Shown piece after piece: positions 6,665 through 59,387 of a stretch of DNA of 64,000 bases. Position numbers and translations under genes: made by a program. The number at the start of each line of letters is the position of its first letter. Position 1 is the first letter of the stretch. The notes under the pieces are model-generated. The model had not been told where the DNA came from and searched no databases. It saw only the letters and a program-made list of their open reading frames with translations. The stretch spans positions 1,713-65,712 of the forward strand of contig DASTLQ010000008.1 in assembly GCA_035714785.1 (NCBI GenBank), given 5' to 3'. This DNA comes from Minisyncoccota bacterium (GTDB taxonomy: Bacteria; Patescibacteriota; Minisyncoccia; Phycocordibacterales; UBA9973).

Positions 6665-6680
6665 GCTGAAATTATAGCAC

Positions 6681-10096: not shown

Positions 10097-10143
10097 ATAA
10101 ATAATAAGGAATTAGGGGTAATACTTCTATTATAGCATGCTTA

Positions 10144-10224
10144 GGTGTAAGGGGTCCCCTTACACTTTATCCACACCCACCACCCTTACCTGTGGATAAC
10201 ATGTAAGGGGTCCCCTTGCATGTT
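10144..10224. repeat. REP-like repeat cluster R3 (2 inverted core units, 2 DnaA-box 9-mers)
   Basis: GGTGTAAGGGGTCCCCTTACACTTTATCCACACC...CCTGTGGATAACATGTAAGGGGTCCCCTTGCATG. It lies between the lemA start and the secF stop. Confidence 0.85.
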
Positions 10225-12544: not shown

Positions 12545-12682
12545 CATGCAAGGGGTCCCCTCCAAGGGTCCACCTTCGCCAGAGGCGAAGGTGGACCCTT
12601 TAACATGCAAGGGGACCCCTTACACTTTATCCACACCCACCCCCCTTACCTGTGGATAACATGCAAGGGGTCCCCTTACACC
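12545..12682. repeat. REP-like repeat cluster R4 (3 core units, module B, 2 DnaA-box 9-mers) in the divergent secD/SIMPL intergenic region
   Basis: CATGCAAGGGGTCCCCTCCAAGGGTCCACCTTCGCCAGAGGCGAAGGTGGACCCTTTAACATGCAAGGGGACCCCTTACACTTTATCCACACC..CCTGTGGATAACATGCAAGGGGTCCCCTTACACC. Confidence 0.85.
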
Positions 12683-12702
12683 TAAAGTGCTATAATATAA
12701 GG

Positions 12703-17062: not shown

Positions 17063-17422
17063 ACAATAATGAAATTGCGATATATATACTGTCGCTCCCG
17101 CCGTGGCGGACGCGTTATGATTTTCAAATTTCTTAACAGGAATCGAACAATTAGTACTTCTCAGCTCTACACATTACTGTGCTTACACTTAAAGCCTATC
17201 AACCTGATCATCTCTCAGGGTTCTTAACGATTCCTAATCTTGAAGCTGGCTTCCCTCTTAGATGCTTTCAGAGGTTATCCATTCCCGACATAGCTACCGA
17301 GCAATCCACTTGGCAGTAGAGCTCGTACACCAGAGGTCAGTTCACGCCGGTCCTCTCGTACTAAGCGCAAATCTTCTCAAGAATCAACGAGTGCAGTAGA
17401 TAGGAGACCAACCTGTCTCACG

Positions 17423-17748
17423 CATCTACGTCCATAATTACTTATGGGATTGGACTATAGCTTCATCTTTCTTCAGTTTTTACTTGAATAAGACTGCTGA
17501 CGTTTAGTCTCTACGGGTTCCGCCTACTGGCAGATTCCCTCGGTATTGCCCTCACTTTCGTGATCGGGTTTCACCGATACTAGTCAGCTTCACGTCACGC
17601 ATTTCTGTGTGACGCCGCCGTGATGTGCTAAAGCAAATGAATGCCATGCACGTGGTTGTTTTCGATTTATAACAGTCTAATTCGTTCTGAATTATTTTCC
17701 TCTGTAGGGTTCAGATCGTCAAAACCACAAGTTTGTCTTATGATCTCA
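17423..17748 (-). other. Group I intron (ORF-less) in 23S rRNA at the E. coli position ~2593 equivalent
   Basis: Exon junction GGGTTCAGACCGT|intron|CGTGAGACAGG. The intron follows U and ends in G. R-like (GTAGAGACTAAACG) and S-like (GAAGCTATAGTCC) elements are present. Confidence 0.65.
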
Positions 17749-18411
17749 ACGGTCTGAACCCAGCTCGCGTACCTTTTTAATTGGCGAACAGCCAAACGCT
17801 TGGGAGCTTCTCCACCCCCGCGCTAAGGTGAGCCGACATCGAGGTGCCGAACTCCGCCGTCGATATGAACTCTTAGGCGGAACTAGCCTGTTATCCCTAG
17901 AGTAGCTTTTATCCGTTAATCTAAACCCGCATCTAATGCGAAATTTCGGTTCACTTAGTTCTGGTTTCCCACCTGCTCGGGAAGTACCCCTTACAGTCAA
18001 GCCATCTTATGCCTATACACTATCGGCACGGTTTCCATTCGCGCCTAGATGACCTTTAAACCCCTCCTTTACTTTTTAGGAGGGTACAGCCCCAGTAAAA
18101 CTATCCACCAGATACTGTCTCAGTCCGTTTTTTCCGTACTGGTTAGAACATGCCTTCAAAAAGAATGGTATTTCACTGACGAGTAGATAACAGCCGAAAC
18201 CGCTAACATCAGACCTCTCCCATCTATTCTACGCAGTTTAAAAACATGCTCAATATCAAGTTATAGTAAAGCTTCTAGGGTCTTTTCGTCTAACTGCACT
18301 TAACCGGCATCTTCACCGGTATTGTATTTTCACCGAGCTGGTCCCCGAGACAGTTTCCCAGTCATTACACCATTCGTGCGCGTCGGAACTTACCCGACAA
18401 GGTATTTCGCT

Positions 18412-18625
18412 CTTCTATACCCAAGAAGGACTCTATCTTCATCCTCTCCGAAGAGGTGGGATGCTTGACGCTGGTCTCTCGTTAGCCAAGTTTTGACTGT
18501 CTCTACATTACTCTAGAGCAGGTAGCATTCGAATAGTCTAATAATTTTTTAATTTAATTGTTTACTTTTTTCTACAACAGTCCCAGTCATTCCGCGCTCG
18601 TCTGCCATAGGCAAACAAATGCAGA
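18412..18625 (-). other. Group I intron (ORF-less) in 23S rRNA at the E. coli position ~1917 equivalent
   Basis: Exon junction GGTCCTAAGGT|intron|AGCGAAATACCTTGTCGGGTAAG. The intron follows U and ends in G. R-like (TGTAGAGACAGTC) and S-like (GAAGATAGAGTCC) elements are present. Confidence 0.6.
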
Positions 18626-18660
<35 letters not shown>

Positions 18661-19394
18661 CAGGGCTTATATCAGTCTGCATATCTCCATCTTGCGACAA
18701 AGAAACACCGCCGATATTTGACCTTCTGGCATTGGTCAGGTGTCACCCCCTATACATCCTCTTACCGAGTTCGCAGGGAGCTGTGTTTTTGGTAAACAGT
18801 TGCCAGGAATACTTTCGCTGCGGCCGGCATTTCTGCCGGCAAGCCTTATCCCGAAGTTACGGCTGCTTTTTTGCCGAGTTCCTTGGGGACCTCTCACTCG
18901 TTCGTCTTGGTCTACTCGACCTGATCACCTGTGTCGGTTTGCGGTACGGATTCCATATTTTTAAGTTTAGAGATTTTTCTTGGAAGCGTGCTTTGCGAAA
19001 TTGCCCTCGGCCTAAACCGAAAACTTTTCACTTCTCTTGGATTCGCTATTTAAAGCAGCGCGCGGATTTTCCTACGCATCATCCTCAAGAAGCAAACTTA
19101 AATCCATTAATAAGCGACGCATACTACACTCCGTCCTCTCATCACAAAATATGGAAGTGCAGAAATATTAATCTGCTCTTCCATCGGGTGCGGATTTCTC
19201 CATCCCCTTAGGCCCGACTAACCCTTGGCTGATTATCATTACCAAGGAAACCTTGATCTTTCGACGTGATGCGTTCTCAGCATCATTGCGGTTACTTGTG
19301 CCAACATTCTTACTTCCACACGCTCCATAGGCCCTCACGGGTCCTACTTCACAGCAGAGTGGAACACTCTCCTACCACTCGTGAACTTCATAGA

Positions 19395-19705
19395 GGAGCC
19401 GATATTTTTTTATATCGGCTTTCAAACAATTTCGGGGTTCTCCGCAACATCAATCCACACGTTCAGAACACCATATTTAACGTATTGGAGAACCCAAAAG
19501 AACAAATCGTGCCCAGGAAGCGGGATTAAAACCCGACAAAGACCTTCGTCTTTGTATGCTTTGTTTTAACAAAAATTTTTTAAATTAGTTTTTATTTAAA
19601 CATCGCCTGATTGTTACTACTACCGGCTCAATATATCATACACGATATACCAGTACGTAACCCTCCTGGGCTGGCCACCCACCTTGGATGCGAAACTCTT
19701 CCTCT
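19395..19705 (-). other. About 310-nt insertion in 23S rRNA at the helix-45-equivalent region (IVS-like, bounded by a ~16-bp long-range stem)
   Basis: It lies between conserved CCGAA.. and GGTAGGAGAGTGTTC. The flanks GAATTTCATAGAGGA / TCCTCTATGAAGTTC can pair with each other. No group I signatures were seen. Confidence 0.4.
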
Positions 19706-20409
19706 ATGAAATTCACGAATCCTCACATTCGGTACTATGCTTAGCCCCAATTATTTTCGACGCAAAATCTCTGGATGAGTGAGCTGTTACGCTATCTTTA
19801 AAGGATGGCTGCTTCTAAGCCAACCTCCTCATTGTCAGAGAAATTTCACCTTCTTGTCTTGCACTTAGCATAGATTTAGGGACCTTATATTGAGATCCGG
19901 GCTGTTTCCCTTTTCACCAATGGAGCTTAGCCCCCACGGTGTAACTGCCGCATTCTGGCTTCTGGTATTCGGAGTTTGATAGGTTTCGCGAGATTGCTCC
20001 CTGTCGAAACCTTCCAGTGCTCTACCCCCAAAAGAAACATGCGACGCTAGCCCTAAAGCTATTTCGGAGAGAACCAGCTATTACCAGGTTCGATTAGCTT
20101 TTCACTCCTTACCACAAGTCATCCCAACGCGTTGTACGACGAACGGGTTCGGACCTCCATAAGTCTTTCGACCTACTTCATCCTGCTCATGGCAAGCTCA
20201 CCTGGCTTCGGGTCTTATGCATGATATATTTATTTCGCGCTATTAACACTCGGTTTCCCTACGGCTCTGCGGTTCTCCCGCTTAACCTACAACATGCATA
20301 AACTCGTTGGCTCATTCTTCAATAGGCACGCTGTCGCAGATATAAATACCTGCTCCAACTCCTTGTAGACATACGGTTTCAGGTCTATTTCACTGCCCTA
20401 ATCGGGCTT

Positions 20410-20446
<37 letters not shown>

Positions 20447-21202
20447 ATCTGTTAGAGTATTTAGCCTTAGCGGTTAGTTCCGCTGGATTCCCCCCGGCCA
20501 TTCGTGTCCTGGGGTACTCAAGAACGGCAATAAAAGAGATAAATTATTTTCGCTTACGGGCCTATCACCCTCTATGGAACCGCTTTCCAGCAGTTTCAGC
20601 TAATAATTTATTTTTTTACTCTTCTAGTAATCTACATTGCCGCCTTACAACCCCCAAATATTGCTACTTGGGTTTGGGCTCTTTCCTTTTCGCTCGCCGC
20701 TACTTAGGAAATAATTTTTATTCTCTTTTCCACCTGGTACTGAGATGTTTCACTTCCCAGGGTGCGCTCTCTGAATCAAGTTCAGAGTTATTGAGGTTTG
20801 CTCAATAGGGTTTCCCCATTCGGAGATCTCCGGATATATTGGTTGCTAGGCACCTCCCCGGAGCTTATCGCAGCTATGCCACGTCCTTCATCGCCTCTAA
20901 CAGTCTAGGCATCCACCGTACGCCCTTAATTTCCTGTTAAGAAATCTGAAAATCATAATTTTCATTTAGCTTTCTTTTCCGACCGCTCGGCATAAGAAAG
21001 CTGTTCTACCTACCGACATAAAGACCCCTTGGAAAGATTCATATCTTTACAAAAGAAATTGTCGTAGTAGCTTTAAGTTTTCAATCTTCAATCCGTTTCG
21101 GCAAACAAAAAACCGCCTTGTGGGCGGCTAAAAGAAAAAAACTTCTCTTTAGCGCCGCCTTTTGAGTTTCGTGTTTTTCGTTATTGTCATACTGATTGGG
21201 CT

Positions 21203-21296: not shown

Positions 21297-21340
21297 GCAA
21301 GGGGTCTAGGTGTAAGGGGTCCCCTTGCATGTTATCCACA
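21297..21340. repeat. REP-like repeat R5 (1 core unit plus DnaA-box 9-mer)
   Basis: GGTGTAAGGGGTCCCCTTGCATGTTATCCACA. Confidence 0.85.
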
Positions 21341-22116: not shown

Positions 22117-22698
22117 TCAAGGTCTTTTGAGTGCTTGTGTGGATAACTCTTTGGCGGACCACACGACCTCGTGAGGGAAATCGAGGATATCTCTGACCAA
22201 TTTGTCGTACATATCCAATCTATATACAAATTCTTTAGTATCAAAAACAACGTAAGAAAGCTCAACTCCGATTTCTGCTTCAAGTCTTTTCACACCTTCT
22301 TCCACTTTCTTGGTCTTGATTTTATCTCCTACCACTAAAATATCAGCCCGAGTGTCTTTGTCTTTTATAAATACACCAGACACAATCAAGAGCTTTATCT
22401 TTCCTGATTTTCGGAAACTTTCGATTATGTTTTGCTTGTCGTAGCTTCCGGCATTTATTAATAAATCCTCAAATTCAGTTGTATAAGGGAAAGCTAGATT
22501 GAAGGTCCAACCTGCAGACATCTTTTTTACAAAATTTGCCGACGAAAGAAGAGCGAGCTCTTTGCGGACCACCGAAAGATTCACCCTACTTCTACTTACT
22601 ATATCTTTATTGGTAAAAGCTTTGCTTTTGTTTTGCAAAAAAAGCCTCATCATTTTTACCCTAGACGGGCTTCCTAGTATTTTTCCTAATATTTCCAT
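22117..22698 (-). CDS. Hypothetical winged-HTH-like protein
   Basis: The N-terminal segment ILGSPSRVKMMRLFLQNKSKAFTNKDIVSRSRVNLSVVRKELALL has HTH character. The start is trimmed to MEILGKILG, because the 5' extension reads through repeat R6. Confidence 0.45.
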   Translation of the reverse strand: MEILGKILGSPSRVKMMRLFLQNKSKAFTNKDIVSRSRVNLSVVRKELALLSSANFVKKMSAGWTFNLAFPYTTEFEDLLINAGSYDKQNIIESFRKSGKIKLLIVSGVFIKDKDTRADILVVGDKIKTKKVEEGVKRLEAEIGVELSYVVFDTKEFVYRLDMYDKLVRDILDFPHEVVWSAKELSTQALKRP

Positions 22699-22717: not shown

Positions 22718-22752
22718 GCATGTAAGGGGTCCCCTTGCATGTTATCCACAGG
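22718..22752. repeat. REP-like repeat R6 (1 core unit plus DnaA-box 9-mer)
   Basis: CGCATGTAAGGGGTCCCCTTGCATGTTATCCACAGG. Confidence 0.85.
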
Positions 22753-22767: not shown

Positions 22768-24480
22768 TTAATGCTGGTAAAATCCTCTAGCTTCTGAATC
22801 CGGTATAAGAATAAGTTTTACTTCCCTATTTTTACATAATTCGATTATTTTTTCATCATTTACTGACCCGCTCGTAGAAAAAATCGTCTTTATTCCTCGG
22901 TCTATTAATACTTCTGGAGCATCAGGAAATGGGAAGAAACTGTCGCTGTATGCCGTGGCTCCTGTGAGGTCGGCTGTTTGTGTGCCCTCCTGTGCGCTTT
23001 GGGCGCTTTGGGCGCTCTCTGCGCTTTGGGCCTCTCCCATACTTGCTCGAAATCCGGCTGACTCATCGGCGCGAGAGATTGCAAGCTTTGCCGCTCCCAC
23101 TCTGTCCTGCTGGCCGACTCCGTTTCCTAGTAGCTGTCCATCTTTTACTAGTGTAATGGTGTTGCTGTTTGAAGTACTACCTACTGCCCAAGCGAGCACT
23201 GCATCTTGGGGCAAGGCGTTTAGGGGTAAGGGGTCCCCTTGCATGTTTGCGTGTAAGGGGTCCCCTTGCATGTTATCCACAGGTACGAAGGTGTAGTTTG
23301 GTTGCTCTAAAAATCCACCTCGGACATATCGGAATCTTTTGGCTATATCGAGTGAGTCCTGCCCCGCCTTTTCAATCTTTGGATTTACTACCAAACGGCA
23401 CTTCCCCTTTTTGCGAGAAAGTATTTCGATTGCTTCTTCGCTAAAAGAAGGCGCGGCCACCATGTCGAGCAATCTCCTCCCCTCCGCTACATATTTATGA
23501 ATCAGGTCTTCTGCAATCTTTTCATCAACTGGAAAATTTACCATCACCATCCCGCCAAAGATTGCGCGTAAATCGCCAGTGAGCATTTTTTCCACTGCCA
23601 CTCCGCCATCAGCATCTGACACTCCTGCCCCACATGGATTTCCATGCTTTACTCCAATAGCCACAAACGGAACTTGCGAAAAGTTTTTTTCAAACCCCGC
23701 TCCGATATGGGTGACTGTCTGGATCATCCGATCAAGATCACATATATTGTTGTAGCTCATGGCACTGCCTCCGACCTGCTTCCAATTGTGCACCGCTAGT
23801 GCATCCTTGCTTCCTAGATTTTCAAAGAGAGCCGCCGGCTTCTGATATGCATTTTCCCCGTAAGCACATTCGTAGTTTCTTTTTCCAAAAATTGCTTTGT
23901 ATTCACCTCCACTATGATACTCTCCAGAAATGGAACAGTACCTTCCCACTACCGCTTCTGCCTTGGCAGAAAGTGCGTTTAGAAAATTTTCTTTCTCTGG
24001 TTCACCAGCTTGTAGCCATTCGATTACTCTTGGTCGATCGATAGGGTCGCAAATAGTGATCCTTCCTCCTTTGGCCGAAGCCCTGATCATGGTCGGTCCG
24101 CCAATGTCTGTTTTCTCTATCACTGATTCACGAGTGGCGTCCGGATTTGCAACCTCATCTTCTAAGGGATAGAAATCTACACACACCATATCGATGCGAG
24201 AGATTCCATATTTTTCCAAGTCCGCAATATGTTCCGGAGTATCGAGCGCTAAAAGTCCCCCGTGAATTTTTGGATGCAAGGTCGCTACTCGGTGTCCCAA
24301 TATTGCCGGCATGCCCGTGATCTCCTCAACGTCCGTCACCGCTATTCCATTTTCCGAAAGATATTTTGCCGTCCCTCCCGAAGAGATTATTTTCCAGCCC
24401 ATAGATACTAGGGCCTTGGCAAAATCTTCTAGACCATTTTTATTATAAACAGAAATGAGGGCCGTTTTTTGGTGTTGCAT
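22768..24480 (-). CDS. purH: Bifunctional AICAR transformylase/IMP cyclohydrolase, carrying an in-frame REP-derived insertion and a SAQ nonapeptide-repeat insertion
   Basis: The N-terminal MGS-like domain is MQHQKTALISVYNKNGLEDFAKAL. The C-terminus matches PurH (..SDSFFPFPDA..). Repeat R7 is translated as VDNMQGDPLHANMQGDPLPLNALP. The 9-bp tandem GCGCTTTGG x4 encodes SAESAQSAQSAQ. Confidence 0.9.
   Translation of the reverse strand: MQHQKTALISVYNKNGLEDFAKALVSMGWKIISSGGTAKYLSENGIAVTDVEEITGMPAILGHRVATLHPKIHGGLLALDTPEHIADLEKYGISRIDMVCVDFYPLEDEVANPDATRESVIEKTDIGGPTMIRASAKGGRITICDPIDRPRVIEWLQAGEPEKENFLNALSAKAEAVVGRYCSISGEYHSGGEYKAIFGKRNYECAYGENAYQKPAALFENLGSKDALAVHNWKQVGGSAMSYNNICDLDRMIQTVTHIGAGFEKNFSQVPFVAIGVKHGNPCGAGVSDADGGVAVEKMLTGDLRAIFGGMVMVNFPVDEKIAEDLIHKYVAEGRRLLDMVAAPSFSEEAIEILSRKKGKCRLVVNPKIEKAGQDSLDIAKRFRYVRGGFLEQPNYTFVPVDNMQGDPLHANMQGDPLPLNALPQDAVLAWAVGSTSNSNTITLVKDGQLLGNGVGQQDRVGAAKLAISRADESAGFRASMGEAQSAESAQSAQSAQEGTQTADLTGATAYSDSFFPFPDAPEVLIDRGIKTIFSTSGSVNDEKIIELCKNREVKLILIPDSEARGFYQH
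22990..23035. repeat. 9-bp tandem repeat (about 4.5 copies, GCGCTTTGG / GCGCTCTCT) inside purH
   Basis: The sequence is read directly. It is in frame and encodes an (SAQ)n-like stretch. Confidence 0.75.
23224..23283. repeat. REP-like repeat cluster R7 (2 core units plus DnaA-box 9-mer) inside the purH CDS
   Basis: GGTAAGGGGTCCCCTTGCATGTTTGCGTGTAAGGGGTCCCCTTGCATGTTATCCACAGG. This is the same two-unit variant, in the same strand and frame, as in gatA. Confidence 0.85.
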
Positions 24481-24496
24481 GTACGTATAATAACAC

Positions 24497-24609
24497 AAAA
24501 ACCCCTGAATACTTCTTGAGAAAAGCCTTCGGAGGCGCGACGGCGCCGGAGAGAGAAAATTTTCAGCAGAAAATTTTCGTGCTTTTCAAAAGAAGTATTC
24601 AGGGGTTTT
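24497..24609 (-). terminator. Long structured inverted repeat / intrinsic terminator between rplL and purH
   Basis: An outer stem of about 26 bp (AAAACCCCTGAATACTTCTTGAGAAAAG / CTTTTCAAAAGAAGTATTCAGGGGTTTT) encloses inner hairpins. On the minus strand it is followed by TTTTTGTGTT. Confidence 0.5.
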
Positions 24610-25826: not shown

Positions 25827-28697
25827 TTAGGGGGAATATGTCGATTCGTAAACGGGAAGGGGTTTCAGAATCATATTAAATCCGCCGGAATAGGGAGGGA
25901 AAGGAGAATCTTCGATCGAAAACCATTCACCCGAAGGGAAAGTTTGGAAGTGATTTTCTGAACTGTTCCACCCGACCCAAGTATTTTCATCTAAACTTTC
26001 CACCACCACTTCTTCGTAGCCCACGAGCTGTTCCCCTCTTCTAAGATAATACGTATACCCCGTCGCCTTCCAAGTAATCGAAACGCTATATATTTCTCCA
26101 TCCATATTATTTTGAGGATTATTTTTGAGAAGCGAAAGTGTAACATCAGAAGATTCGAATCCTTTTTGCGGATCGCGATTAAAGATACCTCGCTCCAAGA
26201 AATTTTCACTGCCCGTCCCTGATTCTGCAGTTTTTATTTTAAAATCTTGGCGAAGAAAACCATTTCTATAACTATTTTTCCAATCATATACATATGACCC
26301 ATCAAAAGCCCAAATCTGCCAATATCGACCTAACTCATCTACACCAAAGGAATATTTAGGAATATATGTATAGGTCGGAGAAGTGACGGTAAATTTAAAT
26401 TTCGTATCTGTTGTCGGAAAACGAAAAGTCTCGTCATCGTCGGTAGAAGTAAAATAATAATCATATTCTCCCGCTTCAAATGTTCCATCATATCCGTACA
26501 TTTCACCGTTAGAAAAATCTCCGTCACTAAATATACCTTCTCCCGATGTTATTCTTTCCATAGAAAAATCTGAAAGTAGGGATGAATTTAAATTTTCCGT
26601 ATGCAACATTACTTGCTCGGGTTCTCTATTAAGTGGACATGTATAAATCACTCGAAAAGAAAAAATTGTTTGGTTTTCATTTCCTTCCAGAATATTTAAT
26701 CCATCGTTTTCATATGGACCGGAAGTGGTCGTGCTCAAATGTGGCAATAATGGCAGAGGAAGTCCAATGTATACAGCAAAAGGTTCCATCATCATACTAC
26801 CCCCTCCTTCTAAGCCCGGAGAAGCATACGGTATTCCAATCCAATCCCCCGAAGGAAAAAATTTAAACGAATTAAATGACCCGTCCCAACCCACCCACAT
26901 ATTTTCATCAACTCCTGCAATGTCTGTATGTCCTGTAGCATGCACAGTATTATCATCCGACAAATTAGTAATTGTATAGGTGTAGCCAAGAGCATCCCAC
27001 AGAATATCAACTAAGTATGTAGCGTCAATCATGTTATTTTGCGGACTATATTCAAGGGAAGAAATAGTAAGGTCAGTGCGAAGAAAGCCCAGCCTAGGAT
27101 CACCGTTTTTAAATATTCCTCGTTCCAAGCACTGCGAACACCAGAATCCTCTGTATGTTTGAAGTTTGAATTTCTCATTTAAGTATCCATTTATATAAGT
27201 ATCGGACCAGTCATATATATTTGAACCATTAAAAGCCCAGACTTGCCAATCACGTCCGTCTCCGTTCCCTGTTCCAAATTTATATTTATCAATATATTTG
27301 ATCTGTCCCGGAATTGGCGGATCACTTTCCTCCCCGCCGCCATTTCCTCCTTCTTCGTTTCCGTTTTCTTCTTCATTTCCATTGTTCCCCCCTTCTTCAT
27401 TGCTTTCTTCTTCGTTTCCATTTCCTTCGGAATCGTTGTCATCCTCTTCTTCTTCAGAATGGTTGTCCTCCTCATCAGGTGGAATCACGACAGGGTCTAC
27501 GACCTCACTCACAGGTGAAGGAGAAACGTTCCGAGAGCTCCTGTTTCTACTTGGATTCAAAACAACAGAATCTGGTTTCGAAGGATCTATGTTTTCACTT
27601 GTGCTAGAAGTGCTAAGATTTGCGGCTTGATTCCAGATGGGTGCAATTTGAAAAGTTTGAGGAGGTGTGGAGGGAGAGATAGTTTGCTGAGTCGGTTCCG
27701 CCGATTTTTGCTTATCAGTTTGATCAGTAACAAGATTGTCGTATGCAATTACAGCGACCGATTCGTTTGGAATTTTCTCCGCCGTACTAGCTAGCTTGCT
27801 AAAAATCGAGAGCGCACCTTCTGCAATCTTCTGTGACAAATAGTCCGCCCCTTTCACCGCAGTTTTGATTATTGCTTTTCCCGCTAGCGCATATGGATCT
27901 GCAAGAAAAAAGAATCCCTCGAGAATACGATGCCCAAGCGTAGGATCGGGAGGAGCAATGCAATAATTTTCTTTCAATTGAACAGAATTATTGGAAAGTT
28001 CTCCGAGCGAATTATATACACCTCTTATAATGTCTCCTTTTAAATATTTTAGGTAAACATTTCGGAAATTGTGTCCATTAGAATCATCGCCAGGGTCTAA
28101 AGTTACTTTTGCATTTGCAGGCAACACGCTTACGATCTTTCCCGTCCGAATTAGATTTATGACCTTGTCAGTATCTGAAGTAAGATACTTTCCATCTCCG
28201 GCAACTCGACTAGTAGGAGTGGCTATTCCAAACAATCGTATAGACTCAGCGGGGATTCCTCCAGACCGATTGGCCACAGTGTCGTAGAAACTATTAGCAT
28301 AAAAATTCCCTTGAGAATGGCCCACCAATAATACCTTCTGAGTGGTAATTTTTTTACTTGCCTCTTTTAAAATTTCAACTAGGTCAAAATCACGCACCTC
28401 CCTTTCGTCAAAATACTTTTGATATGCGGCAGCAAAAAGATCAGTGACGCCTCCTAAGTGAGTTGGATTATGAAGATAATCAACCTTAATTTCCTCAGTA
28501 TTACGATTAAAAGGCAAAATTTTTCTGAGTCCTTCCATGTTGGCTACCGCTTCCTTTTCAGTAGTAAAAATGCCATTGATAGTGACTACCGTAAAATCAT
28601 CCGGTGAGCAATACTGTGCAAACGCTTCCCCAAATCCAGCTAAAAATAAAAAGATGAAAAACAAAACTGTTATCAAAATTTTATTGAATGTTCTCAT
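25827..28697 (-). CDS. Large secreted protein: N-terminal alpha/beta-hydrolase (lipase/esterase-like, GHSQG nucleophile elbow), poly-acidic E/N/G-rich linker, and two tandem ~190-aa C-terminal repeat domains
   Basis: Signal peptide, then VLLVGHSQGNFYANSFYD. An EEEDDNDSEGNGNEEESNEEGG low-complexity linker follows. Two paralogous domains begin KYKFGTGNGDGRDWQVWAFNGSNIYDW.. and KYSFGVDELGRYWQIWAFDGSYVYDW.. Confidence 0.55.
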   Translation of the reverse strand: MRTFNKILITVLFFIFLFLAGFGEAFAQYCSPDDFTVVTINGIFTTEKEAVANMEGLRKILPFNRNTEEIKVDYLHNPTHLGGVTDLFAAAYQKYFDEREVRDFDLVEILKEASKKITTQKVLLVGHSQGNFYANSFYDTVANRSGGIPAESIRLFGIATPTSRVAGDGKYLTSDTDKVINLIRTGKIVSVLPANAKVTLDPGDDSNGHNFRNVYLKYLKGDIIRGVYNSLGELSNNSVQLKENYCIAPPDPTLGHRILEGFFFLADPYALAGKAIIKTAVKGADYLSQKIAEGALSIFSKLASTAEKIPNESVAVIAYDNLVTDQTDKQKSAEPTQQTISPSTPPQTFQIAPIWNQAANLSTSSTSENIDPSKPDSVVLNPSRNRSSRNVSPSPVSEVVDPVVIPPDEEDNHSEEEEDDNDSEGNGNEEESNEEGGNNGNEEENGNEEGGNGGGEESDPPIPGQIKYIDKYKFGTGNGDGRDWQVWAFNGSNIYDWSDTYINGYLNEKFKLQTYRGFWCSQCLERGIFKNGDPRLGFLRTDLTISSLEYSPQNNMIDATYLVDILWDALGYTYTITNLSDDNTVHATGHTDIAGVDENMWVGWDGSFNSFKFFPSGDWIGIPYASPGLEGGGSMMMEPFAVYIGLPLPLLPHLSTTTSGPYENDGLNILEGNENQTIFSFRVIYTCPLNREPEQVMLHTENLNSSLLSDFSMERITSGEGIFSDGDFSNGEMYGYDGTFEAGEYDYYFTSTDDDETFRFPTTDTKFKFTVTSPTYTYIPKYSFGVDELGRYWQIWAFDGSYVYDWKNSYRNGFLRQDFKIKTAESGTGSENFLERGIFNRDPQKGFESSDVTLSLLKNNPQNNMDGEIYSVSITWKATGYTYYLRRGEQLVGYEEVVVESLDENTWVGWNSSENHFQTFPSGEWFSIEDSPFPPYSGGFNMILKPLPVYESTYSP

Positions 28698-29293
28698 ATC
28701 TTTAGATCACAAAATTCCTTTTGTGTTTGATTAAAGCTGCCAATTTTTTTGTAAAAGTTGTCGTCGGCCTTGATGCGCGCCGGAGTATTAAGCTGTAATT
28801 TTTCTACAAATTGAGCAAGCTCGTCGCTAATCTCCAAAATATTTTCTGTATCTTTCGGTAGATGACTGGCCAAACATTCATATGCTCGACTTTTTTCTTG
28901 AATGACTGCTGTGGCAATATCTTCATTTACATATTTTGTATTTGCCATAGTCTGTAGGGCAAAAGCGTACTGCATTAATTGGGCCCGTGTCACTAGATCA
29001 GGATAGGCATTTAATATTGAAAGCTCCACATCGTCCCTGATGCCGTTATTGTTTTCATCTATACCTTCCACGGTATCCTTTGATTTAGAACCCGTAAAAG
29101 AAGGCATGTTTTCACCTGTTATATCTGCCAAGGAAATCTTCGCCTCATGTATTTCCTTTAATTTTGCTTCTACGTCCTCTTGATGAAACAAAAATGCTAT
29201 ACGAGAAACCAGTCCCGAACCAAAAAGAATCACCGTCAGCCCAAGAACCCAGAGCATCACTTTGAGTGATTTATGATTGAATAGATTTTTCAT
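28694..29293 (-). CDS. Hypothetical membrane-anchored protein (overlaps the start of the downstream large hydrolase by 4 nt)
   Basis: The 199-aa ORF has an N-terminal TM helix and an ATGA overlap with the 25827-28697 gene. Confidence 0.45.
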   Translation of the reverse strand: MKNLFNHKSLKVMLWVLGLTVILFGSGLVSRIAFLFHQEDVEAKLKEIHEAKISLADITGENMPSFTGSKSKDTVEGIDENNNGIRDDVELSILNAYPDLVTRAQLMQYAFALQTMANTKYVNEDIATAVIQEKSRAYECLASHLPKDTENILEISDELAQFVEKLQLNTPARIKADDNFYKKIGSFNQTQKEFCDLKI

Positions 29294-29393
29294 TATTAGA
29301 GAAAATTACTTATAAAATAGAAAAAGACCAGACCTCGGCGGATCTAGTCACTCATCTTTCGATTATATTCTTTGTGTCCCCAACCTGTCAAAA

Positions 29394-29480
29394 CTGTGGA
29401 TAACATGTAAGGGGTCCCCTTACACGCAACATGCAAGGGGACCCCTTACCCCTTGCCGACCCTTACCCTTACCCTTGGCC
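29394..29480. repeat. REP-like repeat cluster R8 (2 core units, DnaA-box 9-mer, CCCTTACC tail) at the 3' flank of the RAYT gene
   Basis: CTGTGGATAACATGTAAGGGGTCCCCTTACACGCAACATGCAAGGGGACCCCTTACCCCTTGCC. Confidence 0.85.
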
Positions 29481-30161
29481 CTCGCCCAAACCCTCATGTG
29501 TATTAAACAAAAGCCATTCTTTTATAAAATCATTAAAGTCATCGACTTTTTCAAAATATTCCGGAAAAGCTCCTTTGTTAATAATTTCTTCTTCTTGATA
29601 ATTTTTCTGCTGGTAAATTAAATAGCTAGAATTTTGATAACTATTTAAATATCTCTCTGTCCTACGAATATCACTAATTCCGCTCTCTTTCCACTCTGGG
29701 TCAATTATTTTTACCGGATTTAAATGAATATAAGCAAATAAATATTTTAAGTATGTATCCGTGTTAACATGCTTCGCTTTAAATGCCCTCTCAAATACTG
29801 GCCCAGTCCTTTTGTGTTTTTTATTAAAATACATCGAATAGCCAGTAAGGAGCTTTAGCATAAATTGAGTTACTCCTCCTGGAATCTTTTCTTTTACTAA
29901 AATATGAAAGTGATTAGGCATGAGACAATATGCCCCTATGTCGACAAGTGTTCTTTTTCTGCGCACGAAAAATAGGTCAGAGAAAGTACGGCCGTTTTTG
30001 AAATGCCGAGCTATGTCTACAGAGTCTGAACTATTACACACATAGAGCAGAGCCTTAAATCTCAAATAATCCTTGGAATCGAGAAAAATCTCGTGCTTAT
30101 CCGTACCACGGTTGTATAAATGATAATATTCGTTGATAGAAAAATTGATCTTCCGCTCCAT
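29469..30161 (-). CDS. REP-associated tyrosine transposase (RAYT; IS200/IS605-like Y1 HUH transposase family)
   Basis: An HUH motif (CLMPNHFHILV) and a C-terminal catalytic-Tyr motif (YLFAYIHLNPVK) are present, and the N-terminus (YHLYNRGTDKHEIF) matches the Y1 family pattern. REP clusters lie immediately on both flanks. Confidence 0.7.
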   Translation of the reverse strand: MERKINFSINEYYHLYNRGTDKHEIFLDSKDYLRFKALLYVCNSSDSVDIARHFKNGRTFSDLFFVRRKRTLVDIGAYCLMPNHFHILVKEKIPGGVTQFMLKLLTGYSMYFNKKHKRTGPVFERAFKAKHVNTDTYLKYLFAYIHLNPVKIIDPEWKESGISDIRRTERYLNSYQNSSYLIYQQKNYQEEEIINKGAFPEYFEKVDDFNDFIKEWLLFNTHEGLGEGQG

Positions 30162-30224
30162 ATTATATGGAAGATCGCGTCTCTCGTATCAAAAATTATA
30201 GCAAAACTAGTAACCAAAAAGAAA

Positions 30225-30313
30225 GGTCCCCTCCACCTGTGGATAACATGCAAGGGGTCCCCTTACACTTTATCCACACCCTGTGGATAACATGCAAGGG
30301 GTCCCCTTACACC
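30225..30313. repeat. REP-like repeat cluster R9 (2 core units, 3 DnaA-box 9-mers) at the 5' flank of the RAYT gene
   Basis: GGTCCCCTCCACCTGTGGATAACATGCAAGGGGTCCCCTTACACTTTATCCACACCCTGTGGATAACATGCAAGGGGTCCCCTTACACC. Confidence 0.85.
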
Positions 30314-30317: not shown

Positions 30318-31085
30318 TCAAACCTTCGTCAAAATCTCAGGCTCATGGTCGGTGATTAGGACGGTGAGCTCAAAGTGAGCACTAGGCTTTCCGTCCGATG
30401 TACGAAATGTATACCCGTCGTGCTCTAGCACTACGTTTTTCTTGCCCATGTTTAACATCGGCTCAATTGCTATCACCATTCCAGGCACTAGCTTTTCACC
30501 TGTTCCTTTTTTCCCAAAGTTTGGCACAAATGGATCTTCGTGAATATATTTTCCTACTCCATGGCCTGCCAAGACATCTACTATTCCATATTTATGGGGC
30601 TTCACATATTTTTCAATTGCGTGTCCGATATCCCCCACCCTACCTCCGCCCACTGCTGCGTCTATCCCTACATGCATGGCCTCCTCTGTCACCTCCAAAA
30701 GTTTTTTCATAGCAGGACTAATCTTTCCTACTGGTACGGTGATAGCCATATCGGTAAACATCCCTTTGTGTTTTAGTCCGAGATCTATGGTGATATTCTC
30801 TCCCTCTTTCAGTATCCTGTTTTTACTAGGAATCCCATGCACTACTTCTTCTCCCACTGACACACAGAGACTAGCTGGAAAAGCGCTCCTGGCTCCCTCA
30901 GGCTTGTAGTTTAAAAAAGCTGGCTCATCCCCTCCTTTCTTTATTAGCGAGTAGGCATAGTCATCTAGCTCTTTAGTAGAAACTCCAGGCACTACCTTTT
31001 CTTTTACTTTGTGCAAGATGGTCGCCAGTCTCCTGCCTCCCTCGCGAAGTATTTCAATTTCTTCTTTTGTTTTTATATAAATCAT
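30318..31085 (-). CDS. map: Methionine aminopeptidase type I
   Basis: The 255-aa ORF carries the conserved metal ligands (..DLGLKHKGMFTDMAITVPVG.., HGVGKYIHEDP, IAIEPM). Confidence 0.9.
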   Translation of the reverse strand: MIYIKTKEEIEILREGGRRLATILHKVKEKVVPGVSTKELDDYAYSLIKKGGDEPAFLNYKPEGARSAFPASLCVSVGEEVVHGIPSKNRILKEGENITIDLGLKHKGMFTDMAITVPVGKISPAMKKLLEVTEEAMHVGIDAAVGGGRVGDIGHAIEKYVKPHKYGIVDVLAGHGVGKYIHEDPFVPNFGKKGTGEKLVPGMVIAIEPMLNMGKKNVVLEHDGYTFRTSDGKPSAHFELTVLITDHEPEILTKV

Positions 31086-31764: not shown

Positions 31765-32352
31765 TTAGAGTCCTAGAGCTTTAATAATATCCTGGTGAAC
31801 ACTTTCGATGCTCTGCTCTCCATTAATGGCAAATATCTCGTACCCTGCTTTTCCTTTAAAATGATCCATTGCAGGAACGACATTGTTTACATACTCTTGG
31901 AACCGTCTTTTTATTCCCTCTTCTGTGTCATCAATTCTTCCGCGCAATAGATTTCTCTTCATCGCTTCTTGCTCAGAAAGTTCGATGTAGATAATCTTTA
32001 TATTGTTACGCTTATAGAATTTCATCATCGACTCAAAACTTTCTGCCTGTCTGATGGTACGAGGATACCCGTCCGCGATAAAATGCTTTTCGTCTGTCAG
32101 TGACTCCATCAATATTCCAGTAAAAATAGAGGTGGTCAAAAAATCTGGTTGTAGCTCACCTCTGCCCACAGAATCCTTTATTAGATTGCCAGTATAGCTT
32201 CCGCTTTCTATGTGTTTGCGATATTCAGCTCCAGGATAGGCGTATGTTATTTCTTTATCGGATTTTCCTTTCAAAAAATCCATTAATAGTTTTACTTGAG
32301 TCCCTTTGCCGGAACCCACTATTCCAAAAAACACGAATGTTTGTGGTTGCAT
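31765..32352 (-). CDS. adk: Adenylate kinase
   Basis: A P-loop (FGIVGSGKGTQ) and the motifs GYPRT and RIDD are present. Confidence 0.85.
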   Translation of the reverse strand: MQPQTFVFFGIVGSGKGTQVKLLMDFLKGKSDKEITYAYPGAEYRKHIESGSYTGNLIKDSVGRGELQPDFLTTSIFTGILMESLTDEKHFIADGYPRTIRQAESFESMMKFYKRNNIKIIYIELSEQEAMKRNLLRGRIDDTEEGIKRRFQEYVNNVVPAMDHFKGKAGYEIFAINGEQSIESVHQDIIKALGL

Positions 32353-32985: not shown

Positions 32986-33053
32986 GGTAAGGGGACCCCT
33001 TGCATGTTATCCACAGGTAAGGGTGGTGGGTGTGGAAAGGGTCCCCTTGCATG
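32986..33053. repeat. REP-like repeat cluster R10 (2 core units plus DnaA-box 9-mer) between convergent cmk and secY
   Basis: GGGTAAGGGGACCCCTTGCATGTTATCCACAGGTAAGGGTGGTGGGTGTGGAAAGGGTCCCCTTGCATG. Confidence 0.85.
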
Positions 33054-33058: not shown

Positions 33059-34327
33059 CTAGTACTCGCGCATGGAGACTTGCGCGTCCACTTTTTTGAT
33101 GAGGTCTAGGACCACAGAAACTACGATGAGGAGGGCTGTACCGCCGAGGGCAATAGCTGTAATACCAGTCACAGCCTGAGTGACTAAAGGAAGGACTGCG
33201 ATCAATCCCAAGAATACTGCACCGAGCAAGGTGATTCTACCCAACACTTTGGAAATATATTCAGCAGTAGAAGCACCTGGACGAATACCTGGAATGAATG
33301 CACCATTTTTCTGTAGATTTGTAGAAAGGGATTCTGGATCAAAAGTAACAGCGGTATAGAAGTAGGTAAACATAAATACAAGAATGAAGTACAACACTCC
33401 GTACAATAGCGAAGTCTGAGAAAAGGAAGCGAGTGATGTAGCCACTTTTTGCAAAGTAGGATTTGTTGCCCCAGCCAAAAAGTTTCCGATCATTTGAGGG
33501 AACAGAAGAATAGAAAGGGCAAAGATGATTGGGATCACTCCAGCCTGGTTTACGCGAAGAGGAATGTAGGTAGAGCCTCCGCCGTACATTTTCATTCCAC
33601 GCACTCGTTTTGCGTAAGTGACCGGAATCGGTCGCTCAGCTTCCGTCACCACTACCACACCGGCGATTACCAGAATTCCCACCACCACAAAGGCTACCAA
33701 GAGTGGGATCTGCGAAGGTTCAAATGTAAATGCTAGCTGGCTGACTTCAGATGGAAGCACAGATACGATACCAGCAAAGATGAGCAAGGATACTCCGTTT
33801 CCGATTCCGAATTCTGAAATGAGCTCTCCGAGCCACATGGTCAAAAGTGCTCCAGCTACCACGATGATCACATTCATCACGCGATCAAAAGGAGTGAGGC
33901 CAGTCAAAATATTTTGCTGTTCCAAAATAGCGAGCAAGCTGTACCCCTGAATAGCAGCCAATGGCACAGTGAGATATCGAGAGTACTGAGTAAATCGCTT
34001 TCGTCCTGCCTCCCCTTCTTCATGATAAAGCTTCTTCAAAGAAGGCACCATGATAGTGAGGAGTTGCATGATGATGGAGCTCGTAATATATGGTCCTACT
34101 CCAAGCATGATTATAGAAAGGTTTGAAAGTCCACCTCCGGAAAAGATATTCAAAATCCCAAAGAATTGATTGTTGGACAAAAACTGATTTAGCGCCAGAG
34201 TATCGATGCTCGGAATTGGAATAGTAGAAAGCAATCGGAAGACAATCAAGGCGAAAAGCACAAACAGCACCTTCTTTCGGAGAGATGCATCTGTAAAGAT
34301 CAGTTTAATTTTGTGCCAGAAATTCAT
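33059..34327 (-). CDS. secY: Protein translocase subunit SecY
   Basis: The 422-aa ORF has ten TM helices and is the last gene of the spc cluster. Confidence 0.9.
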   Translation of the reverse strand: MNFWHKIKLIFTDASLRKKVLFVLFALIVFRLLSTIPIPSIDTLALNQFLSNNQFFGILNIFSGGGLSNLSIIMLGVGPYITSSIIMQLLTIMVPSLKKLYHEEGEAGRKRFTQYSRYLTVPLAAIQGYSLLAILEQQNILTGLTPFDRVMNVIIVVAGALLTMWLGELISEFGIGNGVSLLIFAGIVSVLPSEVSQLAFTFEPSQIPLLVAFVVVGILVIAGVVVVTEAERPIPVTYAKRVRGMKMYGGGSTYIPLRVNQAGVIPIIFALSILLFPQMIGNFLAGATNPTLQKVATSLASFSQTSLLYGVLYFILVFMFTYFYTAVTFDPESLSTNLQKNGAFIPGIRPGASTAEYISKVLGRITLLGAVFLGLIAVLPLVTQAVTGITAIALGGTALLIVVSVVLDLIKKVDAQVSMREY

Positions 34328-44800: not shown

Positions 44801-44861
44801 GGTGTAAGGGGTCCCCTTGCATGTTATCCACAGGTTTAGGTGTAAGGGGTCCCCTTACACC
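44801..44861. repeat. REP-like repeat cluster R11 (2 core units plus DnaA-box 9-mer) upstream of tuf
   Basis: GGTGTAAGGGGTCCCCTTGCATGTTATCCACAGGTTTAGGTGTAAGGGGTCCCCTTACACC. Confidence 0.85.
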
Positions 44862-45753: not shown

Positions 45754-45770
45754 AATTTGATTATACTCCA

Positions 45771-45820
45771 CCTGTGGATAACATGTAAGGGGTCCCCTTG
45801 CATGTTCCCCTTGCATGTTA
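45771..45820. repeat. REP-like repeat R12 (1.5 core units plus DnaA-box 9-mer) abutting the fusA stop
   Basis: CCTGTGGATAACATGTAAGGGGTCCCCTTGCATGTTCCCCTTGCATGTTA. Confidence 0.8.
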
Positions 45821-47968
45821 CTTGCGGGTGGCGATGATAGTTTCGGCTACGTTTTGAGGCACGATGTCGTAGCGAATGAATTCCATAGTGAAAGATGCAC
45901 GACCTTCAGTCATGGATCGTAGGCTGGTCATGTATCCGAACATTTCAGAAAGAGGAACTACGGCATTTACTACTTTGTTCATTCCGCGGTCTTCCATTCC
46001 TTCGATCAATCCTCGTTTTGAAGACAGATTACCTGTCACGTCTCCCATGAATTTATCTGGAGTGACAACTTCTACTTTCATCATAGGTTCCAAGATCACT
46101 GGAGTAGCTCGTCGGCAAGCATCTTGTACAGCCATAGAAGCGGCGATTTTGAAAGCCATTTCGTTTGAGTCCACTTCGTGATAAGAACCGTCCCATAGGT
46201 CTACTGATACGTTTACCATTTTGAATCCTGCCAAGATACCTCGGTCTAGTCCTTCTTTAAATCCTTTTTCACAAGCAGGGATATATTCCTGAGGGATCAC
46301 TCCTCCTTTGATGTTGTTGATGAATTCAAATCCTTCACTTCTCTTTGTATTCTTTGGAAGATCTGACACTTCTTCTTTTGTAAGAGCTTGCATTGGCTTG
46401 ATCTTGATCTTCACATGACCGTAGTTACCGCGACCTCCAGACTGCTTGATGTATTTTCCTTCAGCCTCAGAATTGTTGGTGATAGTTTCTCGATACGCAA
46501 CCTGTGGTTTTCCGACATTTGCTTCAACAGAAAATTCTCGCTTCATGCGGTCAACGATGATTTCTAGGTGAAGCTCTCCCATTCCTGAGATGATAGTCTC
46601 CCCTGCTTCGTTGTCGCTTGAAACTTTAAAGGTAGGATCTTCTTGGGCAAGACGGTTTAGGGCCATTCCCATTTTTTCTTGGTCTGCCTTAGTTTTTGGT
46701 TCGATTCGAAGAGAGATCACTGGTTCAGGGAACACGATCTTATCAAGCTCGATAGGACTATTTTCATCACATAGAGTGTCGGAAGTAATGGTGTCTTTCA
46801 ATCCCACCGCAGCTGCAATTTCTCCAGCAAATACTTTCTTTACTTCTTCTCGGTCGTTTGCATGCATACGTAAGATTCGGCCGATACGTTCTTTGTTTCG
46901 AGTACGAGGATTGTAAACATAAGATCCTGCACTCAGTGTTCCTGAATATACTCGGAAGAAAATAAGCTGTCCGACGAATGGATCAGTAGCCACCTTGAAA
47001 GCAAGAGCGGAAAAAGGTTCGCTATCATCTGCATGTCGAGCAATTTTAACTTCATCGTTTCCAGGATCAGTTCCTTCAATAGCGGGAATATCTAGAGGAG
47101 ATGGAAGATAATCTACCACTCCGTCAAGCACTAACTGAACTCCTTTATTTTTTAGAGCAGTACCTGCATATACTGGGAAAACTTCATTGTTGATTACTCC
47201 TTTTCTCAAAAGCTTCTTTAAAGTTTCTGCATCAGGAATCTTTCCTTCCAAGTATTCACCCATCACTGTATCGTCTTGCTCAACGATTTTTTCGACAAGC
47301 TCATGGTGATACTTTTGGGCTTCTGCTTTTAGTTCTTCTGGAATTTCTTTTTCAACAACCTGACTTCCCATTTCTCCTTCAAAGTAGAATGCCTTCATTT
47401 TCAAAAGGTCCACTACACCTTCGTGCTTTTCTTCCAAGCCGATAGGAATCTGCATGCGAACTGCTTTCTTTGTCAGACGATCCAAAATAGTTGCAAATGA
47501 GCGTTCAAAAGAAGCACCGGTGCGATCAAGTTTATTGATGAAACAAATACGAGGCACTTTTGCTTCGTCGGCATAGCGCCAGTTGGTTTCAGACTGAGGC
47601 TCTACTCCTGCCACTCCGTCGAAAACTACTACAGCTCCGTCGAGTACGCGAAGTGATCGCTTTACTTCTACTGTAAAGTCGATGTGTCCAGGGGTGTCGA
47701 TGATATTAAAACGATGTTTTTTGTTTTTGTCAGCAAGAGCATAGGTTGGAGTCCAGAAACAAGTAACAGCAGCAGAGGTAATAGTAATACCTCTCTCTCT
47801 TTCCTGTTCCATCCAGTCGGTCACAGTCTCCCCTTCATGCACTTCTCCGATCTTATGAGAAACTCCGGTATAAAAAAGCACCCGCTCAGTAGTGGTGGTT
47901 TTTCCTGCGTCGATATGCGCAATAATTCCTATATTCCTTACTTTTTCTAAAGGATAATCTCTTTCCAT
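45818..47968 (-). CDS. fusA: Elongation factor G
   Basis: 716-aa ORF with a GTPase domain ([12 protein letters not shown]) and the EF-G domains II-V. Confidence 0.95.
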
Positions 47969-49852: not shown

Positions 49853-49909
49853 CAACATGTAAGGGGTCCCCTTGCATGTTATCCACAGGGTAAGGGGACC
49901 CCTTACACC
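49853..49909. repeat. REP-like repeat cluster R13 (2 core units plus DnaA-box 9-mer)
   Basis: CAACATGTAAGGGGTCCCCTTGCATGTTATCCACAGGGTAAGGGGACCCCTTACACC. Confidence 0.85.
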
Positions 49910-51267: not shown

Positions 51268-51342
51268 CCTGTGGATAAAGTGTAAGGGGTCCCCTTGCAT
51301 GTTATCCACATGTGGATAAAGTGTAAGGGGTCCCCTTACACC
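51268..51342. repeat. REP-like repeat cluster R14 (2 core units, 3 DnaA-box 9-mers)
   Basis: CCTGTGGATAAAGTGTAAGGGGTCCCCTTGCATGTTATCCACATGTGGATAAAGTGTAAGGGGTCCCCTTACACC. Confidence 0.85.
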
Positions 51343-59319: not shown

Positions 59320-59387
59320 TATTCTTTTAAAAAAGCCCCTCGTGGGGCTCTTTTAATATACTCCTTTCACAAAAAATGTCAATTTTA

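Follow-up and report, generated by a model that had tools for sequence, protein, structure and literature searches.

The question raised by the 64,000-nt stretch of a Minisyncoccota bacterium analysed here (contig DASTLQ010000008.1; hereafter the window) concerns a single open reading frame (ORF) of 230 aa, with an ATG start, that lies between two clusters of a short palindromic repeat. Gene and repeats might belong together, as a REP-associated tyrosine transposase (RAYT) and its cognate repetitive extragenic palindromic (REP) sequences; otherwise, the gene could be part of an ordinary insertion sequence (IS), the repeats could be modules of the host, or the two could simply have come to lie side by side. 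A previous reading of the letters alone (the sequence-only reading) had proposed a REPtron-like unit. According to our analysis, the ORF very probably encodes a domesticated, single-copy Y1 (HUH/tyrosine) single-stranded DNA (ssDNA) transposase of the REP-associated (RAYT/TnpAREP) class, the flanking palindromes being its cognate REPs. RAYT/REP systems in general are well known already; the present arrangement is a real system of this known kind, found here in an undescribed lineage (Paceibacteria, with a tiny genome) of the Candidate Phyla Radiation (CPR).

The repeat is built on a palindromic core, AAGGGGWCCCCTT, which in complete units is accompanied by the 9-mer TTATCCACA (hereafter the box). 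The gene and its flanks are arranged as follows, repeats being listed here and below without a strand:

29469–30161, minus strand: Y1/HUH tyrosine transposase gene of RAYT type, with the HUH motif H84-F-H86 and the class-2 tyrosine motif Y144-IHLNP, Y140 being invariant too
30236–30313: 5'-flanking REP cluster of the gene, with full units 30236–30268 and 30280–30312 (cores 30252–30264 and 30296–30308) and boxes at 30238–30246 (minus), 30270–30278 (plus) and 30282–30290 (minus)
29393–29447: 3'-flanking REP cluster of the gene, a tandem doublet with cores 29409–29421 and 29435–29447 and a terminal box at 29395–29403 (minus)
29443–29480: CCCTTACCC(C)TTG micro-repeats (family D2), overlapping the end of the Y1 ORF (its final codons and the stop)

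Both hallmarks that the sequence-only reading had attributed to the ORF, LMPNHFHILV (residues 80–89) and YLFAYIHLNPV (residues 140–150), were found in place, as were the clusters on either side. A profile search of the protein gave a significant match with Pfam Y1_Tnp (31.3 bits against a cut-off of 23), and REP_Tyr_transpos was the sole NCBIfam match at E ≤ 1. In an alignment of 20 homologs (56–65% identity), H84, H86, Y140, Y144 and the NP of the Y...NP motif are invariant, as is YIHLNP (residues 144–149) as a whole. Both results favour the sequence-only reading, which had named their opposites (no significant profile match, HUH/Tyr residues not conserved) as grounds for refutation. The AlphaFold2 model of the full protein has a predicted local distance difference test (pLDDT) score of 84 and, together with the motifs, presents the Y1 fold with the HUH motif and the catalytic Tyr on the following helix. 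When the model was compared with solved structures by Foldseek, the only match with E < 1e-3 was the E. coli TnpAREP in complex with its REP hairpin (4er8), the predicted fold being far closer to this REP-bound protein than to the TnpA of IS608, ISDra2 or IS200. The final ~9 residues are not conserved among the 20 homologs and have a pLDDT < 50; their codons enter the CCCTTACCC micro-repeat adjoining the REPs. At NCBI, the identical protein is labelled 'transposase' and assigned to 'Candidatus Paceibacterota', in agreement with the CPR-like lineage previously guessed from the letters. The Y1 family spans thousands of homologs in CPR, where the gene is resident and conserved, and a tblastn search of the window with the protein finds only the gene itself.

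The 16-locus repeat family previously described was recovered in full, with 28 exact copies of the core in 64 kb and none in any of 100 dinucleotide-preserving shuffles. The repeat had been equated with the core palindrome; the core is indeed present, but the unit proved to be longer, continuing into RCATG or ACACT and the box. Its full form is GGTGT-AAGGGGWCCCCTT-GCATG-TTATCCACA-GG. Of the 56 hairpin sides, 23 are followed by the box: the RCATG sides (n = 26) continue with TT in 25 cases and with the full box in 16 of those, all of the seven ACACT sides are followed by the box, and none of the ACACC, ACACG and ACCCY sides is. Units occur in three layouts, namely single, inverted doublet (hairpin-box-spacer-box-hairpin) and tandem doublet (hairpin-GCATGTT(T)GCGTGT-hairpin-box). 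As ssDNA, the doublets fold into long hairpins similar to those of REP doublets forming hairpins (REPINs), with energies from −15 to −26 kcal/mol and z from −4.2 to −6.9; the 5'-side cluster of the Y1 gene forms one such long hairpin (−26 kcal/mol, z −6.5), and the 3'-side cluster folds at −20.4 kcal/mol (z −6.9). No Rfam family matched the repeat doublets. Clusters occur at about one per 4 kb of the window, and the top 16-mers of the two flanks of the gene, with 19 and 13 copies, are among the most abundant, the median maximum of a 150-bp tile being 1; within the 64-kb window, the gene is thus flanked by abundant 16-mers as RAYTs are.

Since about a quarter of the intergenic regions of the window hold the repeat, an abundant intergenic sequence might just happen to fill both regions beside an unrelated Y1 gene, with odds of a few percent for both flanks, and the window alone cannot settle the matter. 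For this reason, 80 loci carrying Y1 homologs of 47–62% identity to the query were fetched from GTDB species representatives, and the other intergenic regions of the same loci (n = 400) served as control. An AGG..CCT palindrome was found upstream of the homolog in 54 of 72 intergenic regions (75%) compared with 33 of 400 (8%) in the control (odds ratio 33, Fisher p 2e-32), and downstream in 25 of 57 (44%; odds ratio 8.7, Fisher p 1e-10, against the same control). Overall, hairpins flank the homologs in 65 of the 80 loci, with a palindrome specific to each genome, so that the REPtron-like architecture proposed for the window recurs well beyond it. In most loci the two flanks share the palindrome, whose style is a stem ending in AGG, 3–5 central bases and CCT, while its sequence is genome-specific (AAGGTCCGACCTT, CAAGGTCGAACCTTG, CGAAGGACCGCCCTTCG and CAAGGGGAACCCTTG are examples), and which in most cases outnumbers the other GC-rich palindromes of the locus. 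Where paralogs occur in one locus or genome (L025, L014, L033, L009/L010 and L060/L065), each has a palindrome of its own; each RAYT thus goes with its own cognate REP family, the two co-varying across genomes and across paralogs. Because the link recurs in 65 of 80 loci, each time with its own palindrome, the co-location is not due to chance. This explanation, refuted by the comparison of intergenic regions and contradicted by the paralog-specific palindromes, is left with a negligible probability. Such variation of the palindrome between genomes and between paralogs, following that of the Y1 gene, is the signature of RAYT/REP co-evolution.

The same loci bear on a second possibility, namely that gene and hairpins form an autonomous IS200/IS605-type insertion sequence, with the hairpins as its ends and the dispersed repeats as solo ends or as derivatives similar to miniature inverted-repeat transposable elements. 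Indeed, the protein belongs to the Y1_Tnp family, shares the Y1 fold and the HUH and Tyr motifs with IS608 TnpA and ISDra2 TnpA and is annotated as a transposase; the full units on both flanks (at 29393, 30236 and 30280) are direct repeats on the plus strand, like IS200/IS605 ends, and a recognition of sub-terminal hairpins on ssDNA would, by analogy, be common to both. However, in the Y1 classification of Quentin et al. 2018 (PMC6006769), with whose Table 1 the protein was compared by motif and not by tree, Y---NP is the motif of class 2 (TnpAREP) and Y---Q that of IS200, so that the Y---NP of the protein places it in class 2 and not among the IS200 transposases; the much greater nearness of the fold to TnpAREP speaks in the same direction. 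Moreover, there is one gene copy in 64 kb against 16 loci of the repeat, no tnpB adjoins the gene, and the chromosomal position is conserved, homologs of 47–62% identity occupying the same site ahead of rplJ-rplL in many genomes. At least 12 loci have the homolog, equally oriented, 4–8 kb ahead of these genes, and in 5–6 of those the same two unannotated genes (hyp199 and hyp956) are interposed, like in the window. Second Y1 copies in relatives are just 29–45% identical to the query and are not duplicates. RAYTs are characterised by few copies, by inheritance in the vertical line and by cognate REPs on their flanks (PMC5581495; PMC6006769), and the signs of these hallmarks in the relatives argue against an insertion sequence. 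The autonomous element is therefore largely refuted, and with the very slight probability that we leave to it essentially excluded.

Comparison with the E. coli REPtron (TnpAREP, i.e. RayT/YafM, PDB 4ER8; subclass 2.2, Bertels Group 2) reveals a common plan, consisting of a Y1 HUH/Tyr gene in single copy (here, within the 64 kb) between clusters of the most abundant extragenic palindrome, of REP doublets folding into long hairpins (REPINs) and of the Y...NP motif. On the other hand, the two proteins share only ~10% sequence identity; NHFH is found here in place of DHLH, FE replaces the WQ guide-recognition pair, and a conserved 80-residue tail is packed on the core. The REPs differ as well, having no GT[AG]G head, a short (about 9 bp) and nearly perfect stem and the attached box, and the host here is a CPR bacterium with a very small genome.

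Within class 2, the motifs of the protein (NHFH, FE at the 'W' position, YIHLNP and SSY178–180 in the proximal tail) and its length of 230 aa match TnpA_Y1 subclass 2.1, which corresponds to the Bertels Group 1 RAYTs or 'TIRYT' and is characterised by a median of 238 aa, NH[YF]H, F/W-[EQ], Y[IV]HLNP and SS in the proximal tail (PMC6006769). Many members of this subclass carry a distal C-terminal helix-turn-helix (HTH; Bac_DnaA_C, HTH_23 or HTH_28), and their flanking repeats do not resemble DnaA boxes (PMC6006769). The CPR family departs from this description in having no detectable HTH, in being regularly flanked by REP hairpins, here and in the related loci, and, in the present genome, in a repeat that includes a perfect DnaA-box 9-mer. 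As to the tail, 20 CPR members gave no Pfam match besides Y1_Tnp at E ≤ 10, and the 83 C-terminal residues modelled alone gave a poor result (pLDDT 56), whereas in the full model they pack onto the core. A DnaA-domain-IV-like HTH in the tail that would read TTATCCACA was considered and, on these results, found to be unsupported.

Several observations weigh against the identification of the locus as a RAYT with its REPs. The score with NCBIfam NF047646 (REP_Tyr_transpos, equivalog) is 43.3 bits, under the cut-off of 80, which makes the protein a relative rather than an equivalog of the E. coli-type RAYT. Searches of PDB by sequence, with the single protein and with a 20-sequence profile, gave no Y1 match; the PDB relatives were reached by structure comparison only. 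Published searches found no REPs near members of subclass 2.1 (PMC6006769), the very subclass whose motifs the protein displays. No GT[AG]G head of canonical REPs was found at the hairpin feet, which are GTGT/ACAC or RCATG; the sequence-only reading had already noted that the palindrome is unlike the GTAG-headed REPs, and the REPs are thus atypical, as reported for subclasses 2.6 and 3 (PMC6006769). In the relatives, the palindrome is more regular upstream than downstream of the gene (75% versus 44%), a bias that an operator role could explain as well. In JGI metagenome contigs, AAGGGGWCCCCTTRCAYKTTATCCACA (REP and box) had 0 matches, and hence no second example of the exact repeat was found. 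Finally, the single copy of the Y1 gene refers to 64 kb of one contig of ~84 kb.

Two findings went beyond the sequence-only reading: the 9-mer itself, discussed below, and two doublets located inside genes, of the type that also flanks the Y1 gene on its 3' side:

5587–5669: tandem doublet (5587–5626) and second-family palindrome (5635–5669), in frame inside gatA (4929–6386, minus)
23228–23281: tandem doublet and box (23273), in frame inside purH (22768–24498, minus)

The second palindrome family (AAGGGTCCACCTTCGC...GCGAAGGTGGACCCTT) occurs at three loci of the window (5635–5669, 6768–6835 and 12564–12600), each adjoining a first-family hairpin; no second Y1 gene that could be paired with it was found in the window. 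On the coding strand, the doublets of gatA and purH, identical over 50 nt in two unrelated enzymes, encode the identical peptide NMQGDPLHANMQGDPLPL, and the adjacent GatA peptide KGPPSQSEGGPF is encoded by second-family DNA. In GatA orthologs with 79% identity (P0125 and P0127; 464 aa), ~30 residues are missing precisely at the doublet site. The absence of the in-frame doublet from these orthologs indicates that REP DNA was inserted into conserved genes: the alignment shows an in-frame insertion for gatA, and an insertion into purH is almost certain. The surface loop of GatA concerned (alignment A3, columns ~250–290) holds unrelated inserts of 5–35 aa in many other Paceibacteria, e.g. SGPRxSGAPTPARPFRKAS, and this variety suggests repeated, independent insertion of GC-rich repeats at one permissive site.

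By analogy with the biochemistry of TnpAREP and IS608 TnpA (PMC8266576; PMC6006769), the Y1 protein would bind the folded hairpin on transiently single-stranded DNA, for instance on the lagging-strand template, and nick it a few nt from the hairpin foot, with Y144 forming a 5'-phosphotyrosyl link and H84 and H86 holding the metal. The strand would then be rejoined elsewhere, and REP units would in this way be copied or moved while the gene itself stays put. The repeats offer a candidate for the joining point. A would-be box is broken at one point (marked here by a slash) in several contexts, GCATGTT/TGCGTGT-hairpin, GCATGTT/CCCCTTGCATGTT and GCATGTTA/AAGGGTCC, as against GCATGTT/ATCCACAG, and the junction after GCATGTT precedes ATCCACA, a second unit or a second-family palindrome. 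Being so recurrent (see the TT after nearly all RCATG sides), it is read as the point where units are joined, and it suggests that joining takes place at the 5' border of the box, ~7 nt beyond the foot of the hairpin in the 3' direction. At 45800–45825, a REP end is partly duplicated in tandem (ccccttgcatgtt x2), resembling the footprint of an imprecise joining at the GCATGTT boundary. The Y1 protein may be named as a possible agent of the gatA and purH insertions, although with lower confidence than the RAYT nature of the gene.

The box brings the host into the picture. TTATCCACA has 24 exact copies in the window, 23 of them within repeats; it matches the DnaA-box class TT[AT]TNCACA and equals a perfect E. 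coli R1/R4-type 9-mer. Neither dnaA nor oriC was found by motif in the window or in the 80 loci, and no replication origin of the window was apparent from GC skew. The box has 75 copies in the 80 related loci against about 8–10 expected, i.e. it is 7–10x over-represented. In the closer relatives, the hairpin peculiar to each genome is accompanied by the box immediately downstream of the Y1 gene, and sometimes upstream as well, in the form hairpin-N3-6-AG-TTATCCACA-G. In 31 cases among the relatives (loci L002–L077; e.g. L007 at 6023 and 19569, L012 at 17632, L023 at 10699 and L027 at 3867), the box is followed on its own strand, after 24–40 nt, by a hexamer of TATAAT type (TA[ATC]AAT). With TATAAT itself the spacing is 28–36 nt; the 30–34 nt bin alone holds 19 exact cases, and the other side almost none. 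The genes behind such promoters encode an MscS-like channel, large surface proteins, a pilin-like protein, the Y1 protein and the product of its downstream neighbour. Given this placement before −10-like hexamers of diverse genes, the box is read from its sequence context as a host promoter-upstream element of the lineage. In the window, two putative promoters adjoin the clusters of the Y1 gene:

30195–30200, minus strand: putative −10 box of the Y1 gene (TGcTATAAT, consensus match), 37 nt downstream of the box at 30238–30246 and 33 nt upstream of the ATG
29362–29391, minus strand: putative sigma-70-type promoter of the gene at 28694–29293 (TTGACA 29386–29391, TATAAT 29362–29367), starting 3 nt past the REP-borne box

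A like layout of box and TATAAT precedes the Y1 homologs of L008 and L064, and hairpin, box and promoter occupy positions orthologous to the second one in L004, L005, L023 and L047. In the relatives, a TTGACA-like −35 is often contributed by the 3' arm of the hairpin that precedes the Y1 gene (e.g. L060). Elsewhere in the window, REP clusters often abut the extended −10 boxes (TGcTATAAT) of neighbouring genes (6671–6684, 10128–10148, 12678–12697, 45757–45772 and 59340–59392).

These data give some room to a third explanation, in which the units are regulatory or structural modules of the host, made of a promoter-upstream box and a hairpin acting as operator, mRNA end or terminator, and homogenised by gene conversion or replication slippage; the Y1 protein would use the adjacent hairpin as operator or have some other task on ssDNA. 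The excess of boxes in the related loci, the 31 boxes set at a near-fixed distance before hexamers of diverse genes and almost never on the other side, the −10 boxes abutted by REPs of the window and the palindrome that, ahead of Y1 homologs, often extends over the −35 position of their own promoter and is more regular there than downstream would all be accounted for. So would the sole box of the window outside REPs, at 22138–22146 (minus), which is the conserved, orthologous promoter of the MscS-like gene. Yet the identical 50-nt in-frame doublets in two unrelated enzymes, absent from the 79%-identity orthologs, point to insertion and not to promoter function, and only about 3 of the 23 REP-borne boxes stand at promoter distance from a −10 box, which leaves about 20 of them without one. 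Furthermore, the palindrome varies by genome and paralog in step with the Y1 gene, and boxes per kb are ~5x more numerous in the window than in the relatives, almost all of them being fused to hairpins. Taken as a full account of the repeats, host modules are thus improbable; in the genome of the window, the box has multiplied together with the hairpin.

A further reading, of rather low probability, is put forward tentatively: the REP units of the RAYT would be mobile carriers of a functional host site, TTATCCACA serving both as the place where the Y1 protein cuts and joins (GCATGTT/ATCCACA) and as a promoter-upstream site of Paceibacteria, to which DnaA or some other factor would bind. Candidate readers of the box are DnaA, a different factor and the Y1 protein. 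If the REP units were such carriers, the RAYT would have spread some hundreds of DnaA-box/promoter elements across a genome of ~1 Mb; new promoters would arise or existing ones be retuned, the initiator protein would be titrated, and the 'REP-less' subclass 2.1, in which some members have a DnaA-like HTH, would gain in this family its first branch associated with REPs.

A further promoter with the box, AG-TTATCCACA-cATATACTTTGCAGGTT...TATAAT, is strongly conserved 3–7 kb upstream of the Y1 gene in several relatives (L002 2750, L004 5982, L005 5843, L006 5788, L007 6023, L071 6984 and L074 4628) and has no counterpart in the window. In L007, it precedes a leader of ~400 nt and an ORF of 1104 aa. 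A role as driver of rRNA was rejected for the box promoter found 4–5 kb upstream of the gene, no Rfam match being found there and the long leader and 1104-aa ORF being found instead.

The remaining loci of the repeat in the window are the following:

6685–6835: inverted doublet with boxes at 6703 and 6727, then second-family palindromes (6768–6835)
10149–10217: inverted (REPIN-like) doublet with boxes at 10167 and 10191, folding at −23.2 kcal/mol (z −5.8)
12550–12677: degenerate core (12550), second-family palindrome (12564–12600) and inverted doublet (12609–12677) with boxes at 12627 and 12651
21314–21340: single unit with box at 21332, between the MscS-like gene and the 23S rRNA promoter region
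22724–22750: single unit with box at 22742, for which the ssDNA fold was computed
32989–33048: doublet with box at 33007 and a degenerate second core (33036), between a cmk-like gene and secY
44806–44856: doublet with box at 44824
45773–45812: box (45773) and hairpin (45787) with the partial duplication ccccttgcatgtt x2
49861–49904: doublet with box at 49879
51270–51337: doublet with three boxes (51270, 51302 and 51311)
58057–58100: doublet with box at 58074
59393–59449: inverted doublet with boxes at 59411 and 59423

The gene order around the Y1 gene, between map and hypothetical genes in the vicinity of adk, is the one previously given. On one side lie map (30318–31085), a gene of the amino-acid-kinase family, adk (31765–32352) and secY (33059–34327), and on the other, in order of distance, two ORFs without annotation (199 and 956 aa), rplJ and rplL. 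The two ORFs directly downstream of the Y1 gene (28694–29293, minus, 199 aa, and 25827–28697, minus, 956 aa) are without Pfam matches, the longer one holds a long acidic, low-complexity stretch, and the pair is kept in place in 5–6 related loci. As for rRNA, the 23S gene of the window (17132–20939, minus) is 3.8 kb long and contains a group I intron at 17431–17640 (minus); a second group I intron match (3881–4088, plus) is distant from any detected rRNA and near two tRNA genes, and no 16S rRNA gene was found in the 64 kb.

Two known families of palindromes offer parallels to the repeats. Rickettsia palindromic elements (RPEs) are short palindromic repeats of about 100–150 bp that lie in frame in conserved genes of a reduced genome, adding a surface peptide without destroying the protein; they are not known to have an associated transposase. 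The copies inside gatA and purH are similarly palindromic, in frame and within conserved genes, and they differ in being ordinary members of the family that flanks the RAYT. In the E. coli bacterial interspersed mosaic elements (BIMEs) of the repetitive IHF-binding palindromic (RIP) type, an IHF site lies between two REPs. Likewise, in the repeats of the window a sequence resembling a host-protein site stands between inverted REPs and has been multiplied along with them, the site here being, by sequence match, a DnaA-box consensus and not an IHF site.

Searches of the literature combining RAYT/REPIN, or TTATCCACA, with CPR names retrieved nothing relevant. Three aspects of the system are new with respect to the literature searched: a large, CPR-wide Y1/RAYT family; the REP association of a protein with the motifs of the supposedly REP-less subclass 2.1; and REPs without GT[AG]G that carry a perfect DnaA-box/promoter element and have in-frame copies in essential genes of a streamlined genome. 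The genomes of CPR/Patescibacteria are regarded as streamlined in the extreme, and a dense REP family in one of them shows that selfish or domesticated repeat systems persist there. The range of RAYT/REP biology grows by a new phylum and by a subclass of proteins believed to be without REPs, and the co-varying pairs of protein and hairpin (AGG-loop-CCT cores) make up a natural series for studies of recognition. The presence of a DnaA-box 9-mer in the repeat, together with its use at a fixed distance from promoters in the relatives, provides a testable link between the spread of repeats, promoter architecture and possibly the control of replication in these uncultured organisms.

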